A stretch of 64,000 nucleotides of DNA from Candidatus Woesearchaeota archaeon (GCA_016192945.1 JACPTE010000012.1:9557-73556); one strand, 5' to 3'. Positions 1,199-57,951 are shown, counted from the first letter of the stretch. Numbers and translations are program-made. The notes: generated by a model from the letters alone, not told the origin.

Positions 1199-3811
1199 AT
1201 GACGCTTACTGCCAAGCAGAAATATGAGCTGAAGAAGTTCCTTGCAGAGCTTGATAGCCACAAGGCCATGCATACTGAGCTGATTTCTGTATATATCCCG
1301 CAGGGTTATGACATGAACAAGATTATAAACCACCTTTCCCAGGAGCAGGGAACTGCTGCCAACATAAAGTCTGCGTCAACCAGGAAGAACGTCATTTCTG
1401 CACTGGAGAGGATGATTCAGCACCTCAGGCTTTTCAGGCAGACTCCTGAGAACGGCCTGGCAGTGTTCTCAGGGAATGTCGCCAAGCAGGGCCAGATTGA
1501 CCTGAGGGTCTGGAGCATTGACCCCCCGGTCCCATTGCAGACGAGGATTTACAGGTGCGACAAGAATTTCCAGCTGGATATACTCAGGGATATGCTGGAT
1601 GTCAAGGAGATGTACGGGCTGGTTGTAATGGACAGGAGGGAGGGCAATGTCGCAATTCTGAAGGGCAAGTCAATAATCCCTGTTGCAAAGTACACTTCAA
1701 ACGTACCGGGGAAGACGAAGGCGGGAGGGCAATGCTGTGTTCCTGACACATTGGTTGTCCTGGACTCAGGGGATATAATTCAAATGGCTGATTGTGAAAA
1801 GCCAATGGCTTTGAAGGCTGCAAATTTCTCCAGGAAATCAATTGAGGACTCAGCCGTTACAAATAAGTGGAATACGCAAAAAAATGCTGTTTTCCGCATA
1901 ACTACCAAATTTCCCCGCCTTGAGATTGAAACCTCAGCTGAACACGTGTTTTTTGTTTTGGTGGATGGTGAGATGGTTGAAAAAACCGCAGATCAGCTTA
2001 ATCCTGGAGATTGCCTTGTTATGCCTGAAAAAATGGAAGCTAAGGGCAAACTCCAGAAGCTTGAAACAGGAAGATTCTACAATTCATTTATCCTGTCTGA
2101 AAAAGGCAGGGCTTTTCTAAAGTCTCTTAGGCAGAAAATTAAGCAGAAAGAGCTGGCAGCCGAGATAGGCGTTACACAAACTGCAATTTCAGCCTATGAA
2201 CTGGGTAAAAGGAATATTGAACTACCGGCGCTGACCAGCCTATGCAAGCTTTTCAACCTGAGCATTGATGAATTCATTGAAAATTATGCTGAGCCATTCA
2301 GGCACCAGGGAACTGAAATTACTCTGCCAACTGTTCTTGACAGGGATTTGGCTCAATTCCTGGGCTATCTGACTGGCGATGGCACTATTGAAGAGGATAG
2401 GATAACCCTTTTTGAGCAAAGGGCACAGGTAGCCATAGCTTATAAAGAAAAATTTGATGAATACTTCAGGTTAAAAAGCAGCTACAAGTTCAGGCCCTCC
2501 AAGAACTATCATCAGCTCCGCTTTACCTGCCGCCCTCTCGTTAGGATGATAAGAAGCCTTTTCCCGGAAATCATGCTGTCTTCAGATTCAGCCATTCCCT
2601 CCAAGGTTCTGAGGTCAGATGACAACACCCTTGCCGGATATTTGAAGGGCTTGTTTGATGCTGACGGGTATATTTCCGCAAGAGGGCTGGGTTTGGGAAT
2701 GAACAACAAGCTGATAATCAGGCAGGTTCAGCTTGCATTGCTCAGGTTTGGCATTATAGCTTCATTCCATGAATATGATAACAGAAGGAACCCCTTTAGC
2801 AGCAGTATGCGCTATTCTGTCCAGGTTTCAGAGGCAGAATCATTGAGAATTTTCAGAGAATGCGTGGGCTTCACTTCTGTTGAAAAGCAGCTTATTCTTG
2901 AGGAAGTAATTTCAGGCCGAACTGAAAAAAGCAGCGTGCGCCAGATTTTAACTACCGGTTCAGAAGTCAGGGAAAAAATTGAAGGTGAGGGTTATGGCCT
3001 GAAAATGTTTCCAAAAGTAAGCAATTTCTTCAGAAATAAAAGGGCAATGAGCAAGCAGGCTTTCAGGTCGTCAATTTTGTCTTTAGTCCCTGAAGGGAAA
3101 TTAAGCAAAGATTTGCAAAAAATTTCTGACGCTGCTCTTTTGCCTGTGAAGATTCATAAGATAGAGATTATTGCAAAACCTGCCCAAATGGTGGATATTT
3201 CTGTGATAAACCAAACTTTCTTTGCAAACGGCATTTTGGTGCATAACTCTTCACAGAGATTTGAAAGATTGAGAGAGGGGGCTGCAAAGGAGTTCTACAC
3301 GAGGCTTGGGGAGCACATCAAGGACGAGTTTTTCGGCAAGCCTGAGCTTAAGGGGATTATTGTTGGAGGCCCTGGCCCCACGAAGTATGATTTTGTAGAG
3401 GGCAATTACATAGTCACTGAGCTGAAGAAGAGGATTATCGCAATAAAGGACCTGTCATATACAGGCGATTTCGGCCTTCAGGAGCTTGTTGACAAGAGCC
3501 AGGACGTGCTGGCTGAAGAGGAATTGGTCTCTGAAAAGAAAATCATGAACAGGTTCTTTGAGCTGCTTTCAACAAGGCAGGGGATGGTGAGCTACGGGCA
3601 GGCAGATGTCATGCGCCTTGTAAAGGGCGGTGTTGTGGATGTCGTCCTCCTTTCAGAGGCTCTGGAATCAGAGATTATCGGGGAGTTTGAGGAGGAGGCA
3701 AGGAAGTTCGGGACAAGGGTTGAGATAATCTCAACAGAGACAAGGGAGGGCGCGCAATTGAGGGATTTTGGCATGATTGCGGCAATCCTGAGATATGAGG
3801 TAAATTCCTAA
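1199..3811 (+). CDS. prf1: peptide chain release factor aRF1, interrupted by an intein
   Basis: NIKS motif (ANIKSASTRKNV) and GGQ motif; after the intein the sequence resumes SSQRFERLR..., matching canonical GGQSALRFARL; 365 extein aa plus 505 intein aa. Confidence 0.85.
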   Translation: MTLTAKQKYELKKFLAELDSHKAMHTELISVYIPQGYDMNKIINHLSQEQGTAANIKSASTRKNVISALERMIQHLRLFRQTPENGLAVFSGNVAKQGQIDLRVWSIDPPVPLQTRIYRCDKNFQLDILRDMLDVKEMYGLVVMDRREGNVAILKGKSIIPVAKYTSNVPGKTKAGGQCCVPDTLVVLDSGDIIQMADCEKPMALKAANFSRKSIEDSAVTNKWNTQKNAVFRITTKFPRLEIETSAEHVFFVLVDGEMVEKTADQLNPGDCLVMPEKMEAKGKLQKLETGRFYNSFILSEKGRAFLKSLRQKIKQKELAAEIGVTQTAISAYELGKRNIELPALTSLCKLFNLSIDEFIENYAEPFRHQGTEITLPTVLDRDLAQFLGYLTGDGTIEEDRITLFEQRAQVAIAYKEKFDEYFRLKSSYKFRPSKNYHQLRFTCRPLVRMIRSLFPEIMLSSDSAIPSKVLRSDDNTLAGYLKGLFDADGYISARGLGLGMNNKLIIRQVQLALLRFGIIASFHEYDNRRNPFSSSMRYSVQVSEAESLRIFRECVGFTSVEKQLILEEVISGRTEKSSVRQILTTGSEVREKIEGEGYGLKMFPKVSNFFRNKRAMSKQAFRSSILSLVPEGKLSKDLQKISDAALLPVKIHKIEIIAKPAQMVDISVINQTFFANGILVHNSSQRFERLREGAAKEFYTRLGEHIKDEFFGKPELKGIIVGGPGPTKYDFVEGNYIVTELKKRIIAIKDLSYTGDFGLQELVDKSQDVLAEEELVSEKKIMNRFFELLSTRQGMVSYGQADVMRLVKGGVVDVVLLSEALESEIIGEFEEEARKFGTRVEIISTETREGAQLRDFGMIAAILRYEVNS
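1733..3247 (+). mobile_element. intein (Hint domain + XRE-type HTH + LAGLIDADG homing endonuclease) inserted after the GGQ motif of aRF1
   Basis: Begins with Cys right after GGQ and ends ...GILVHN with Ser at +1; block B TxxH (ETSAEH); two LAGLIDADG motifs (LAQFLGYLTGDGTI, LAGYLKGLFDADGYI); Cro/C1-like HTH (ELAAEIGVTQTAISAYELGKRNI). Confidence 0.75.
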
Positions 3812-18006: not shown

Positions 18007-18138
18007 GGGCCCGTAGCTCAGCCTGGTTAGACAGGACTAGTAATCCTGGACAAAAGCGCCGGTCTTATATGGCCACGCTTTGCACAAAGCAAGCTCTAGG
18101 TGAGCCGGATGTCGCCGGTTCGAATCCGGTCGGGCCCA
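18007..18138 (+). tRNA. intron-containing tRNA, probably two introns (D-arm 24 nt, canonical 37/38 33 nt); anticodon reads UAU (putative tRNA-Ile)
   Basis: Exons 18007-18031, 18056-18069, 18103-18138 assemble into a 75-nt tRNA with perfect acceptor (GGGCCCG/CGGGCCC), D stem GCUC/GAGC, anticodon stem CCGGU/GCCGG, T arm GCCGG-UUCGAAU-CCGGU; loop CUUAUAA. Confidence 0.5.
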
Positions 18139-44918: not shown

Positions 44919-46419
44919 TTTTTGCCTCTATTATTTTTGTGGTGCTCTTCACTCCGAACCCCCTTAATGCCTTTATCAGCTCCTCTTCCTGCGAGTCCTG
45001 CGAGACTGTTGCAAGAAGGGCAAGATTCTTCTTGAGGCCTATGTTTGTTCCCTCAGGCGTTTCAATAGGGCACAATCTCCCAAGGTGCGTGCAGTGAAGC
45101 TCCCTTGCCTCAAAGTTTTCCTGTGTAGCAGATAATGGGCTGACTACCCTTTGAAGGTGTGAAATAGTCTCAAGGAAGTTCAGCCTTTGCATTCTCTGGC
45201 TGATTCCCTTTCTTCCCCCAGCCCATGAGCCTGTTGCCATTGAGCTGTAAATCCTTGATGTCAGGAGCTTTTCCCTGATTATCACCTTGATGGTCGGGAA
45301 TTTCCCCCTCTTGACTATCCTCTGGAAATTGTAAAGCAAATCCCCGATTAGCACCTTTATGTTCACCCTTACAAGGTCTGCAAGCAGGTCGCCGCTCAGC
45401 TTGAGCCTCTTGTTGGCGTAGTTGTCCTTGTCGTCAATCTCAAGCTCGCCCCTTATTGTGAGTATGAGCTTCTTAAGCATCTTGCACAGGTTGTATGCCT
45501 TGACCATCCTGTCCCTGGGCAATGTTCCCAAGTGGGGAAGAAGATATTTGTCCAGGATTTCCCTCATCCTTTCTATCCTTATTTCCTTTGACTGGGTGAT
45601 TCCGGACCTTTTTGCAATGTAGTCAACTGCTTCCTCTTCAGTCTTTATCTCGGCTGCCTCAAGCATATTAACTATTATCTCGTCAAACTCCCTGTCTGCC
45701 GAGACAAACCTCATTATGTCCTCATCCTTGGTCAGCCCAAGAGACTTTATTACAACTATTATCGGGATTCTCCTCACCCTCGTGAATGTCAGGTAGAATA
45801 TTCCGTCCCTGAGCCGTTCCATGGTGTGAGGTATCTTGTATGAGCCGTATTCTGAGAAAAGCTTCCCCACAAACTTGCTCGGCCCTGTTGACTCGGTGTC
45901 TGTGATAAACTTGTTTGATGCGAGGTCCTCCACCTTTACAAGCACCTTCTCAGTGCCATTTATTATGAAATACCCGCCTGGGTCGTCAGGGTCTTCACCC
46001 TGCTGTATCAGCTCTTCCCGCGGGAGCTTGTACAGGTGGCACTGCCTTGATTTAAGCATTATAGGGAGGTTTCCTATCTGCGTCTCAAATGACTCCCTCT
46101 GGGCGCCGTTTATGTGCGCGCTGACAGTGATGAACATGGGTGCTGCGTATGTTATCTTCCTGAGCCTTGCCTCTATGGGGAATATTTTTCTCCTGCTTCC
46201 GTCAGCCTCAGTCATTTCAGGCTTTGTTATCCTTATCCTGTCAAACTTTATCTTGAATTCCTCTACATTGGCAGGTATTATTGTTGGCTCTATCTCCCTG
46301 TTTTCGTCTATTATCTTTGGAAGCTCCTGCTCTACGAAATTGTTGAATGACTCTATGTCTGACTTGATGAATGACTGCTCATCAAAATATTTCCTCATCA
46401 GGATTTCATAATTAACCAT
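44911..46419 (-). CDS. rpoB2: DNA-directed RNA polymerase subunit B'' (N-terminal part of split B)
   Basis: 502 aa; 8-nt overlap with rpoB' as in euryarchaeal split rpoB. Confidence 0.9.
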   Translation of the reverse strand: MVNYEILMRKYFDEQSFIKSDIESFNNFVEQELPKIIDENREIEPTIIPANVEEFKIKFDRIRITKPEMTEADGSRRKIFPIEARLRKITYAAPMFITVSAHINGAQRESFETQIGNLPIMLKSRQCHLYKLPREELIQQGEDPDDPGGYFIINGTEKVLVKVEDLASNKFITDTESTGPSKFVGKLFSEYGSYKIPHTMERLRDGIFYLTFTRVRRIPIIVVIKSLGLTKDEDIMRFVSADREFDEIIVNMLEAAEIKTEEEAVDYIAKRSGITQSKEIRIERMREILDKYLLPHLGTLPRDRMVKAYNLCKMLKKLILTIRGELEIDDKDNYANKRLKLSGDLLADLVRVNIKVLIGDLLYNFQRIVKRGKFPTIKVIIREKLLTSRIYSSMATGSWAGGRKGISQRMQRLNFLETISHLQRVVSPLSATQENFEARELHCTHLGRLCPIETPEGTNIGLKKNLALLATVSQDSQEEELIKALRGFGVKSTTKIIEAKNG

Positions 46420-46663
46420 TCACAACCACTCTGTAAAAGACATTCCTGCCCGCAGTGGAGCTGTTCCTTGTTATCTGCATTACATCTCCAGGCTTTGCTC
46501 CCACCCCTGCAAGCATAGGGTCGCTTTTCAGTATCCTGGGAAGCTCAGAAGTTGTCACGTTGTATTTTTGCAGAAGCTCTTCCTTTTCCTTGTCGCTGAG
46601 CTTCTGGTATTTCGGCACTAGGATGTGTTTTTTTACGTCAATCTTCTTATTCATTTTAGGCAT
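46412..46663 (-). CDS. rpoH: DNA-directed RNA polymerase subunit H (Rpb5 homolog)
   Basis: HILVPKYQKLSDKEKEELLQKYNVTTSELPRI...FYRVVV; start chosen at MPKMNKK (or MNKK at 46654); the longer ORF to 46723 would overlap tRNA-Lys. Confidence 0.75.
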   Translation of the reverse strand: MPKMNKKIDVKKHILVPKYQKLSDKEKEELLQKYNVTTSELPRILKSDPMLAGVGAKPGDVMQITRNSSTAGRNVFYRVVVNG

Positions 46664-46681: not shown

Positions 46682-46799
46682 TGGGCCGGACGGGACTTTC
46701 CTGCAATTACCTGATTGTTGCAATTCGAACCCGCGACCGTCTGCTTAAAAGGCAGACGCGCTATTGCCCAGCTTTCCTTCCAGGCTGCGCTACCGGCCC
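46682..46799 (-). tRNA. tRNA-Lys (UUU) with two non-canonical introns (17 nt in D loop, 28 nt in T loop)
   Basis: Exons 46799-46780, 46762-46723, 46694-46682 give a 73-nt tRNA: GGGCCGG acceptor, GCGC D stem, UCUGC-CUUUUAA-GCAGA, GCGGG-UUCGAAU-CCCGU; total 118 nt = 73 + 17 + 28. Confidence 0.6.
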
Positions 46800-46824
46800 A
46801 AGAGCATAATCAATCAATATAAGG

Positions 46825-46962
46825 CGCCCTGGCCGGGACTTTCAGGCTAGGTTCGTGTCACGAGCTTGCTTTTGAACCCGGGTCGCAGCCGCTCTGCCTA
46901 TCTAGCCTCATCAGGCTTTAGTTGACAGGGCTGCATGATAGGCCGGACTACACTACCAGGGC
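46825..46962 (-). tRNA. tRNA-Asp (GUC) with a canonical 37/38 intron (31 nt) and a T-loop intron (32 nt)
   Basis: Exons 46962-46923, 46891-46871, 46838-46825; 5' half GCCCUGGUAGUGUAGUCCGGCCUAUCAU matches archaeal tRNA-Asp; loop CUGUCAC; T-loop intron ends GAAAG like the tRNA-Lys intron. Confidence 0.6.
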
Positions 46963-47268
46963 ATTTTGTTTTAACCCAAACTATTAGTTCTATATATTAG
47001 TTCTATATATTAATTCTATACCCCTAATCCTGTCTTCTATGCATAGCTCTGGCAATCCTCTTCATAAAACCAATCAACAGCTCTTGATATAGCCTGAAAC
47101 AGTTATGTGCTGATAGAAAGATTGCAGAGCCATATGTATTCGGGAAATGGGAGTTATATTTAAAGCTTTCTAATTGCGATTTTCCCTGTTTTCAGCTGCA
47201 TAGCTTGATAAATGTTTAAATACTGGGCATGGCTGAAGCAGCCTGTAAAAGTGGCGAAATACAGGATT

Positions 47269-49102: not shown

Positions 49103-49228
49103 TCCCCACGGCCGGATTTGAACCGGCAGCCTTTCGGGAACGGCTGGCTAAGCTTCATCAACAGCCAGATGGCTTTTTTCTGCATAGCATATCTACAGCC
49201 GAACGCTCTGCCGTTGAGCTACGCGGGG
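49103..49228 (-). tRNA. tRNA-Tyr (GUA) with a 54-nt canonical intron
   Basis: Exons 49228-49193 and 49138-49103: CCCCGCG acceptor, GCUC/GAGC D stem, UUCGG-CUGUAG[intron]C-CCGAA anticodon arm, GCCGG-UUCAAAU-CCGGC T arm. Confidence 0.65.
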
Positions 49229-55140: not shown

Positions 55141-55302
55141 TCAAAGGGCAAAGTTTGCAGGAAAAAGTCCCGGCATGGTTAGCCTGACTATTCCGACGAG
55201 CCGCCCATTGTTGTTATCCAGGTGGTTGTTGCCATCAGCCCTGCCATTATTGATATTATCATTGAGCCTAGCCACAAACCACAAGCGGCAGGTAGTAGCC
55301 AT
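55141..55302 (-). pseudogene. diverged duplicate of the 3' end of the gene at 55480-56304
   Basis: ~95-nt similarity between 55193-55290 and 55640-55740; encodes CRLWFVARLNDNINNGRADGNNHLDNNNGRLVG versus GRLWFVAGLGGSISSGGAVGVNHLGSDGGRFVG. Confidence 0.35.
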
Positions 55303-55479
55303 TCCACTTAAAATTTCCTCACTGCCGCTTCATTTCTGTTGCAGCTGAATTTTATAGCAACAATGTTGCCGTAGTGGAAAGGCGTGTAGTTCCAAGCTAC
55401 ACCTCAACACACATCCTCCTTGTAAAGGATGATGCGTAGCCGGGACAAATAACAAAAAAGAACACACTCATATAAAAAA

Positions 55480-56304
55480 TTACTTGTAAAGCGGCTTCAA
55501 AGCCGCACGGACATCAGTTCCAAAGCCAGCTCTGCCAACCTCAGCAACATATTTCCCAGCGGCAGATAAAACAACATTAACAGTCTGGTCAAGAGTTGGA
55601 CCTGCAACCCCACCTGTAACGGCGCGCGCCTCCGGCGCTACCCCGACGAAACGCCCACCGTCGCTACCCAGGTGGTTGACGCCAACAGCCCCGCCACTAC
55701 TGATACTACCACCGAGCCCAGCCACAAACCACAAGCGGCCAGCCGCTCCTTCAGAAGGAACAGTAGAATGATAAATTCCCATCAGATTGCCATCATAACC
55801 AAACCTTTCTTTGGCCTGAGCAAAAGTAGAATCAACAAACCCAGCAAGCAAGGACTTATCCCCTCCCGCCAAAGCAAGCCATCCTGGATTGATTTTAGCG
55901 TCAGAGCTTCCAAGAGGCTTGTTAAAATAACGCTCTACCTGCTGAGGACTGAATTCCTCACCTTCCAAACCCCTATAAAAGTCATTACTCAAAGGAACAG
56001 CACCATTGACCAGAACCTTTTCCGGTGTGAACTGCCTCAAGTATTCAGCATCAGGAACTATTTTCAGCCTGCCATCACTATGCCTAACAGCACCATCACC
56101 AGTATCAACATAATTGTCCCACCACGCAAGCTTAACCTCATCAGGCACTCCTGAAGCAAGAACTTCCAAACGCCTCTTCATGAGACCGGAAACAGATAAT
56201 GGGCTTCTGCCTTCTGCAACAAGCAAAGACATCTGCTCAACAGTACTTCCATAAAACTCCATATAATCAGCAACAGGAATGTTCAGTTGTAAGCTCATGT
56301 TCAT
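55480..56304 (-). CDS. hypothetical protein (Gly/Ala-rich C-terminus), compositionally atypical
   Basis: 274 aa; GC-richer than the flanks; no recognisable family. Confidence 0.35.
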   Translation of the reverse strand: MNMSLQLNIPVADYMEFYGSTVEQMSLLVAEGRSPLSVSGLMKRRLEVLASGVPDEVKLAWWDNYVDTGDGAVRHSDGRLKIVPDAEYLRQFTPEKVLVNGAVPLSNDFYRGLEGEEFSPQQVERYFNKPLGSSDAKINPGWLALAGGDKSLLAGFVDSTFAQAKERFGYDGNLMGIYHSTVPSEGAAGRLWFVAGLGGSISSGGAVGVNHLGSDGGRFVGVAPEARAVTGGVAGPTLDQTVNVVLSAAGKYVAEVGRAGFGTDVRAALKPLYK

Positions 56305-57242: not shown

Positions 57243-57295
57243 TTAATTTCCCTATTCAGCCTTTCAACTTAATTTCCCTATTCAGCCTTTCAATA
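57243..57295. repeat. tandem 26-bp direct repeat (TTAATTTCCCTATTCAGCCTTTCAAC x2) spanning the transposase stop codon
   Basis: seen in sequence; a second tandem 13-bp repeat (TAGCACTTTTGA x2) lies at 58020-58045 near the other IS end. Confidence 0.5.
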
Positions 57296-57951
57296 AACCA
57301 GTTCCTTCCAATTCCACTGCTGACCACATGCCTTTTCCTTTGCTCTTTATAATTCCAGCCAATCTCTTTCTTAATCGCATAATTGTATTGCTCTAAGCCA
57401 TCCGTGATGATTCTTTTAGGCCTTACTCCAGATACTTGCATTGCTGTGCTCAGAAGGATGCGTGCATCCTTAATTCGTCTTGTCTTGCTAATGTGCCAAG
57501 AAAGAACTCCGATTTTGTCATAAACTATCCAAAGCCAATTACCCTTTCCTTTGATTTTCACATAAGTTTCGTCTGCGTGCCAAGTTGTTGGCACGGCGAT
57601 TTCTCGTCGGGAAATCGGCTTTTTTGTTGTTAATACCCATTGCCTTATAGCTTCTCGGCTGAATTTTACGTTAAATATTTGCAATAACAATTCAGCTATT
57701 CCTTCTAACGAAATTCCTTTTTTCAAATCCGTATAGATTTCAACAGCAAAACCGATAATGTGGCTGAATGTTCTTCTTCTTGGCAAGTCACTTGTCCAAA
57801 CAAAGCGAAACCCGCATTTTTTGCACTCATATTTTTGAAAGCCTTGCTCGTTTTTGCCTTTTCTGTAAAAGTCTTCTTCACCGCATTTTTTGCAAAAGGC
57901 GCAAAGCGAACCTTTTTTATAGCTAAAGCTACTCAAATCTGTTTGTATCAT
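57256..57951 (-). CDS. IS6-family DDE transposase with N-terminal zinc finger
   Basis: 231 aa; CAFCKKC...CKKCG zinc finger; WHADETYVKIKGKGNWLWIVYD...D..E typical of IS6/IS26-like transposases. Confidence 0.8.
   Translation of the reverse strand: MIQTDLSSFSYKKGSLCAFCKKCGEEDFYRKGKNEQGFQKYECKKCGFRFVWTSDLPRRRTFSHIIGFAVEIYTDLKKGISLEGIAELLLQIFNVKFSREAIRQWVLTTKKPISRREIAVPTTWHADETYVKIKGKGNWLWIVYDKIGVLSWHISKTRRIKDARILLSTAMQVSGVRPKRIITDGLEQYNYAIKKEIGWNYKEQRKRHVVSSGIGRNWFIERLNREIKLKG

Follow-up and report, generated by a model that had tools for sequence, protein, structure and literature searches.

Two-intron tRNA-Asp and tRNA-Lys genes next to rpoH in a Woesearchaeota archaeon: intron sites kept across the lineage and a structural basis for a shared intron end

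The window analysed here, a stretch of 64 kb (64,000 nucleotides) from a Candidatus Woesearchaeota archaeon, carries on its minus strand two adjacent tRNA genes, a tRNA-Asp(GUC) gene (46825..46962) and a tRNA-Lys(UUU) gene (46682..46799), which are in all likelihood functional, each with two predicted protein-spliced introns, and which probably form a unit with the neighbouring gene rpoH, encoding RNA polymerase subunit H. This explanation draws on the identity of the two genes, on the boundaries of their introns, on bulge-helix-bulge (BHB) pairing that covaries at the junctions, and on the conservation of intron positions and of synteny among related genomes.

Both genes possess perfect 7-bp acceptor stems (GCCCUGG/CCAGGGC in Asp and GGGCCGG/CCGGCCC in Lys) as well as recognisable D, anticodon and T arms, which are broken up by extra segments. 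In this unspliced form they are missed by ARAGORN, whose only calls in the window are two tRNA-Pro genes, and neither gives an Rfam match at the gathering score, a partial tRNA match of 15.4 bits being obtained on the Lys gene at a permissive threshold. The claim of an earlier, sequence-only reading of this DNA that such genes escape standard tRNA finders is thus borne out. The Asp gene is 138 nt long including the discriminator G. Removal of a 31-nt segment (ACUAAAG...GGCAGAG, 46922..46892) and of a 32-nt segment (AGCAAG...CUGAAAG, 46870..46839) leaves exon 1 (positions 1-37, 46923..46962), exon 2 (positions 38-59, 46871..46891) and exon 3 (positions 60-73, 46825..46838), which together make up a molecule of 75 nt that ARAGORN calls tRNA-Asp(GUC), with CUGUCAC as its anticodon loop. 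When the T-loop segment alone is taken out, ARAGORN run with the -i option detects a tRNA-Asp with a 31-nt anticodon-loop intron. The Lys gene comprises 118 nt including the discriminator A, and removal of its 28-nt T-loop segment (UUGCAAC...GGAAAG, 46723..46696) and of its D-loop segment leaves exon 1 (positions 1-19, 46780..46799), exon 2 (positions 20-59, 46724..46763) and exon 3 (positions 60-73, 46682..46695), a mature sequence of 74 nt called tRNA-Lys(UUU) by ARAGORN, with the anticodon loop CUUUUAA.

The location of the two minus-strand genes given by the sequence-only reading held when the coordinates were re-checked, as did its two anticodon loops, and the ARAGORN run that it had proposed missed the unspliced genes and called the spliced sequences as Asp and Lys. 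Its segment lengths of 31 and 32 nt for Asp and 28 nt for the Lys T loop stand, together with the mature length of 75 nt for Asp; its 17 nt for the Lys D-loop segment and the resulting 73-nt mature tRNA-Lys had to be corrected to 16 and 74 nt, respectively. Its description of the stems as perfect was slightly overstated, given a G10.U25 wobble and a U13.U22 mismatch in the Asp D stem, both of which are kept in all orthologues, and one G.U pair in the Lys T stem.

The exon boundaries were also recovered by a spliced aligner written for the test, which is global in the query and charges long gaps at a fixed cost. The queries were intronless tRNA-Lys and tRNA-Asp genes called by ARAGORN in other genomes, and the test is therefore independent of the window. 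Intronless Lys orthologues (L064 and L004) aligned over 46799..46682 with gaps of 16 and 28 nt and scores of 90-94, against a 99th percentile of 37-44 for Lys queries over 424 window tiles on both strands; intronless Asp orthologues (L072 and L046) aligned over 46962..46825 with gaps of 31 and 32 nt and scores of 109-110, against a 99th percentile of 44 over the same number of tiles. The match between intronless orthologues and the window exons is far beyond chance. On joining, the exons give a cloverleaf and align with the intronless orthologues from end to end, and the predicted T loops, UUCGAAU and UUCAAAU, are those of intronless orthologues (e.g. L004, L064, L065 and L072). Folded without constraints, both precursors have as their minimum free energy (MFE) structure a cloverleaf whose arms are lengthened by the introns, with z-scores of -2.25 (Asp) and -3.02 (Lys) relative to dinucleotide shuffles.

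The window's RpoB'' shows 100% identity with an NCBI protein of a Candidatus Woesearchaeota archaeon, and its close database matches all belong to Woesearchaeota or Nanoarchaeia. For comparison we assembled 80 rpoB'' loci from species-representative genomes, with 61-77% protein identity, plus four loci of the closest relatives, with 84-88% RpoB'' identity, which together represent 84 related genomes. In nearly all of these 84 loci tRNA-Asp and tRNA-Lys precede rpoH-rpoB''. Among 72 Asp genes, 15 were intronless, 21 had one intron, 30 had two, six had three and none had four; the corresponding numbers among 73 Lys genes were seven, 30, 28, seven and one. The counts of anticodon-stem and variable-region introns and of genes with three or four introns are approximate, because the aligner can split a canonical intron where the anticodon stem differs from that of the query. 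Introns recur in the D and T loops of both genes; the further recurring sites are 37/38 in Asp, and the anticodon arm or 37/38 and the variable region in Lys. The commonest combination in each gene is that of the window, namely 37/38 plus T loop in Asp (26 of 72) and D loop plus T loop in Lys (14 of 73). Multi-intron tRNA genes with non-canonical sites are hence confirmed, and their supposed restriction to a few archaeal lineages was overstated, since they are the norm in the sampled Woesearchaeota.

All four window intron positions are present in the four closest relatives, along with near-identical exons (scores 118-136). The introns of relatives measure 16-41 nt at Asp 37/38 (31 nt in the window), 13-49 nt at Asp 59/60 (32 nt), 15-34 nt in the Lys D loop (16 nt) and 15-90 nt at Lys 59/60 (28 nt), and the intron interiors cannot be aligned even among the closest relatives. 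Conserved exons beside freely diverging introns read as the signature of functional genes with spliced introns. Elsewhere in the comparative set, Asp 59/60 introns can be long (186 nt in L066, 161 in L011, 131 in L002, 113 in L052 and 102 in L023). Such introns of more than 100 nt go far beyond what a BHB needs and might carry extra structured RNA or mobile sequence; a similar sequence (CAACCUUUU...) opens the introns of L002, L015 and L052 at their 5' end. Six loci (L002, L006, L007, L011, L017 and L081) have UCCGAAU as the Lys T loop, in which position 55, normally invariant, is C, and in those of them that have a T-loop intron the pairing partner has changed to G, a compensatory change.

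The gene rpoH (46412..46663, minus strand; Pfam RNA_pol_Rpb5_C, E = 1.1e-28) is the first of an rpoH-rpoB''-rpoB'-rpoA'-rpoA'' cluster. It starts 18 nt past the Lys discriminator at its first ATG or 27 nt past it at its second, the latter being conserved in relatives and giving the 80-aa length called there; the closeness of tRNA-Lys to a real rpoH, reported earlier with a gap of 19 nt, is therefore retained with a gap of 18 or 27 nt. Asp and Lys are themselves separated by a spacer of 25 nt (46800..46824, minus strand). In related loci this spacer has a median of 13.5 nt and is at most 30 nt in 48 of 66 cases, and the gap between Lys and rpoH has a median of 23 nt and is at most 40 nt in 43 of 57. 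A standard archaeal promoter would not fit into distances so short. Ahead of tRNA-Asp, at about 25-50 nt, lies a tandem TAATATATAGAAC repeat (46987..47012, minus strand), i.e. two TATA-like boxes in a row, whose proximal copy, about 25-37 nt upstream of the gene, is a candidate TATA box. Asp, Lys and rpoH(-rpoB...) would then probably make up a single transcription unit driven by a promoter ahead of tRNA-Asp, and tRNA processing would release the 5' end of the rpoH mRNA. The short and conserved spacers make this co-transcription plausible; a literature search on archaeal tRNA-rpoH co-transcription found nothing relevant.

Given that promoters in archaea are short, that the genomes of DPANN archaea are compact and that gaps of 50-138 nt between Lys and rpoH occur in some relatives, rpoH might instead be transcribed apart from tRNA-Lys, from a promoter within the 3' part of the Lys gene or its T-loop intron, with the proximity of the two genes reflecting compaction. 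We consider this possible but doubtful: the gap is 18-27 nt here and has a median of 23 nt over 57 loci, neither the Lys 3' exon nor the T-loop intron shows a TATA-like A/T box, and the sequence of that intron is not conserved. Transcription of the two tRNA genes together with rpoH is the arrangement that we consider more probable.

The first Asp intron (31 nt, 46892..46922, minus strand) occupies the canonical site 37/38 and forms a strict hBHBh' motif. As located by a BHB scan, its central helix of 4 bp (CUGU/GGCA(G)) pairs C32-U35 with the intron, and it is accompanied by the bulges CA|A and AG|C, an outer helix of 7 bp and an inner helix of 3 bp. It is the only one of the four introns to pass the strict scan. 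The second Asp intron (32 nt, 46839..46870, minus strand) lies in the T loop at 59/60, a site that holds an intron in 50 of 72 orthologues, and has a near-canonical BHB, in which the T stem serves as outer helix, U54-U55-C56-A57 pairs with UGAA as the central helix in the MFE structure, the 3-nt bulges are AA|A and AG|U, and one bulged C shifts the inner helix. A box C/D guide RNA comparable to that encoded in the euryarchaeal pre-tRNA-Trp intron was considered for these introns and rejected. The defining combination of box C (RUGAUGA), box D (CUGA) and guide is not found here: the first Asp intron contains UGAUGA and the second contains CUGA, which places the two in separate introns of 31-32 nt. 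UGAUGA is absent from all four closest relatives, and close relatives conserve neither motif.

The first Lys intron (16 nt, AAGGAAAGCUGGGCAA, 46764..46779, minus strand) interrupts the D loop at 19/20 (G19|U20), and its removal gives the mature D loop AGCCUGGUA. It forms a relaxed BHB with the central helix G15-C16-C17-U17a/GGGC, which includes one G.U, with the bulges GG|A and AA|U and with an inner helix of 2 bp closed by GAAAG; the outer helix, according to hand analysis and structure prediction, is the D stem, beyond an A14.A38 mismatch. About 22 orthologous Lys D-loop introns show the same register and end in GGGCAA|UA, and the helix covaries, reading GUCC/GGAC in L071, GUCU/GGAC in L030 and GCCU/AGGC in L031 and L058, compared with GCCU/GGGC in the window. 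Intronless orthologues (e.g. L004, L016 and L064) read AGCCUGGUAGAGC at the Lys D loop, matching the predicted AGCCUGGUA. Since the register, the orthologous intron ends and the intronless orthologues agree, the intron is 16 nt long; a 17-nt intron, as first proposed, is off by one and is ruled out by the independent alignment, the BHB register and the intronless orthologues, three lines that agree on 16 nt.

The second Lys intron (28 nt, 46696..46723, minus strand), in the T loop at 59/60, also forms a relaxed BHB. Its central helix consists of U54-A, U55-A and C56-G plus a G57.G mismatch, its bulges are AA|U and AG|U, and its inner helix has 5 bp (UGCAA/UUGCA). The same GGAA mismatch variant is found in the Lys gene of L014 and in the Asp genes of L044 and L063. 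Three of the four window junctions, Lys 59/60, Lys 19/20 and Asp 59/60, thus depart from the strict 3-4-3 BHB and fit the published relaxed classes. BHB formation, which the sequence-only reading had named as the check to be made at each junction, is strict at Asp 37/38 and near-strict or relaxed at the other three.

Both T-loop introns of the window sit at 59/60 and end in GAAAG|U, as had been noticed earlier and attributed either to a common origin or to a shared splicing-endonuclease recognition context. The pattern was followed in 82 T-loop introns, comprising those of the window, of the close relatives and of the 80 loci, with boundaries fixed from the T stem without optimising for pairing. 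All four central-helix pairs are present in 66 of these introns and three of the four in the remaining 16, and by a formal pair count the central helix is 93% paired. When the partners are slid, at most 58% of the cells are paired, compared with 97% in register. The pair A57-U is replaced by G57-C in 15 distinct sequences and U55-A by C55-G in four, so the junction helix is kept by covariation at T-loop pairs 55 and 57, as it is in the D-loop helices. Of the orthologous T-loop introns, 35 of 46 in Asp and 12 of 28 in Lys have AG|U as their 3' bulge. From these alignments the end motif of the T-loop introns reads (Y/U)GRA-AG|U. Its GAA portion is present in the window introns because it is the complement of the near-invariant U54-U55-C56, with which it forms the central BHB helix, and its AG because these are the first two nucleotides of the 3' bulge, AG being the preferred bulge. 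The GAAAG|U end common to both introns reflects a structural constraint and not shared ancestry, and of the two earlier suggestions the shared recognition context is the one upheld, through the recurrence of the pattern in 82 introns and the covariation at 55 and 57.

A recent common origin of the two T-loop introns, by copying or transposition from one gene to the other with the GAAAG end as a remnant, would account for the shared site, the shared end and the GCAA that both introns have near their 5' end, and transposition of introns between different tRNAs has been proposed for Thermoproteales (Fujishima 2010, as cited in PMC4090602). It is nonetheless very improbable here, as the local alignment score of the two introns is no higher than that of shuffled sequence (p = 0.70 over the full length and 0.90 without the last 6 nt) and as the GAAAG end is accounted for by the pairing with U54-U55-C56 together with the preferred AG|U bulge. 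When the four window introns are compared with one another, all six pairs likewise fall within the shuffle distribution (p = 0.06-0.79). Same-position introns of the closest relatives are already unalignable, so that an old relationship would lie beyond detection.

The route by which the four introns would be removed can be outlined from the junction structures. Each intron would pair with the adjacent exon in the precursor to give a BHB motif, strict at Asp 37/38, nearly strict at Asp 59/60 and relaxed at Lys 19/20 and 59/60. The endonuclease EndA, which does not depend on the mature tRNA body for recognising the BHB and cuts both bulges, would cleave two nucleotides into each 3-nt bulge, and the exons would be joined by an RtcB-type ligase, as in archaeal tRNA splicing in general (PMC4090602, PMC3239211, PMC5829648). 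Cuts placed in this way yield a mature sequence as found in the intronless homologues. RNase P, RNase Z and a CCA-adding enzyme would finish the ends, the last of these being needed because the genes do not encode CCA. Nucleotides 54-57 are predicted to be sequestered by the T-loop introns and 15-17a by the D-loop intron, so that the elbow would be unable to form before splicing and recognition would proceed by the BHB alone. The relaxed motifs would call for an EndA of broad specificity; no EndA (tRNA_int_endo) or RtcB is found among the 58 ORFs of the 64-kb window. That these genes might be disrupted pseudogenes, with the functional Asp and Lys tRNAs encoded elsewhere in a genome of which 64 kb is visible, is hardly credible, for although standard finders reject both genes and three of the four junction motifs are imperfect, the exons are near-identical to those of relatives while the introns diverge freely, the BHB helices covary, dozens of independent genomes carry these genes in the same synteny and with introns at the same positions, and the 64-kb window holds no second copy of either gene, single tRNA copies being usual in small DPANN genomes.

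It is textbook knowledge that tRNA genes of Crenarchaeota, Nanoarchaeota and ARMAN-2 can have up to three introns and non-canonical intron sites such as 59/60 and the D loop. The 59/60 and D-loop positions were already known, and cleavage of a 13-nt 59/60 intron has been obtained in vitro (PMC3239211, PMC4090602). The window genes resemble the published multi-intron tRNAs of the TACK group in having short introns (16-32 nt in the window), in combining 37/38 with D- and T-loop sites, 59/60 being on the published list, in having a BHB or relaxed BHB at the junctions, and in carrying up to three introns per gene. They differ from them in that the lineage is the DPANN Woesearchaeota, and in that positions are kept across a phylum-level clade while interiors turn over fast; in addition, the D-loop site of the window is 19/20, whereas the listed site is 20/21. 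In contrast to Thermoproteales, the window introns showed no sign of sequence sharing between genes.

ARMAN-2 (Ca. Micrarchaeum), also a DPANN archaeon, has a pre-tRNA-Cys(GCA) with a 13-nt intron at 59/60 and a pre-tRNA-Pro(GGG) with two T-loop introns; more than half of its tRNA genes are disrupted, and a relaxed hBH form is cleaved in vitro by its cognate EndA, which is of the epsilon2 type and thereby sets this organism apart, as do the other tRNAs and other intron combinations concerned (PMC3239211). The disruption tendencies of DPANN tRNA genes were surveyed earlier by Kaneta et al. (2018), who compared EndA types and the disruption of tRNA genes across 46 archaea, one of them represented by a Woesearchaeota genome. 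They reported that tRNA genes are disrupted to a greater extent in DPANN lineages whose EndAs carry an L3 loop, these lineages being richer in non-canonical and multiple introns, and noted that gaps in a predicted tRNA set are a sign of disrupted genes that escaped detection (PMC5829648). Their survey was conducted at the level of genome summaries, without the gene-level Asp-Lys-rpoH cluster, the intron positions or their conservation (PMC5829648). Beyond the literature searched are the gene-level picture for Woesearchaeota, the phylum-wide retention of the same few sites combined with fast turnover of intron interiors, and the conserved Asp-Lys-rpoH linkage.

Several other features of the window deserve mention. 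A third disrupted tRNA gene, tRNA-Ile(UAU) (18007-18138, plus strand), is missed by both ARAGORN and Rfam. It has the acceptor stem GGGCCCG/CGGGCCC, the anticodon loop CUUAUAA and a 33-nt intron at 37/38 with a strict hBHBh' motif, and the 3' strand of its D stem is split (GA|...|GC) by a further segment of about 24 nt. No convincing BHB was found for this D-arm insertion, and trial excisions with ARAGORN -i were too permissive. A tRNA-Tyr(GUA) gene with a 57-nt anticodon-loop intron (49103-49228, minus strand) is matched by Rfam at the gathering score (55.9 bits) and missed by default ARAGORN; the tRNA-Tyr introns of related loci measure 49-60 nt. Further along on the minus strand is a pair of 102-nt repeats resembling a diversity-generating retroelement (DGR) (55188-55289 and 55638-55739) whose copies are 80% identical, with an RNA between them (55290-55444): the Rfam RT-16 RNA (RF03019, 76 bits) sits exactly between the repeats. 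On the minus strand the mismatches are almost all of one kind, with A in the intergenic, template-like copy and G or T in the variable-like copy, which is situated within the C-terminal portion of ORF 55480-56304. A reverse transcriptase gene was looked for near the repeat pair and not found. Near this element, an ORF with an IS240-type DDE transposase domain (57256-57951, minus strand) adjoins an HTH_40 protein. The aRF1 gene (1199-3811, plus strand; eRF1 domains 1-3) contains an intein with a LAGLIDADG homing-endonuclease domain and an HTH domain.

These findings leave current concepts of archaeal tRNA splicing unchanged. The 84-genome comparison is a natural experiment in which a non-canonical archaeal intron must keep its BHB-forming ends only, while the same few intron sites remain in use across the whole lineage. 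Since ARAGORN and the Rfam tRNA model miss these essential genes as well as the one at 18007-18138, DPANN tRNA complements are systematically under-called, and such incomplete sets are open to misreading as gene loss or host dependence. More tentatively, the 19/20 and 59/60 sites may be ancient and vertically inherited within the Asp-Lys-rpoH unit, with the mRNA for RNA polymerase dependent on tRNA end-processing and perhaps on splicing; although we hold this somewhat unlikely, it would, if true, contrast with the picture of recent transposition obtained from Thermoproteales and would couple tRNA maturation capacity to RNA polymerase synthesis. The tight and conserved linkage of the three genes suggests a testable tie between tRNA processing and expression of the RNA polymerase operon.
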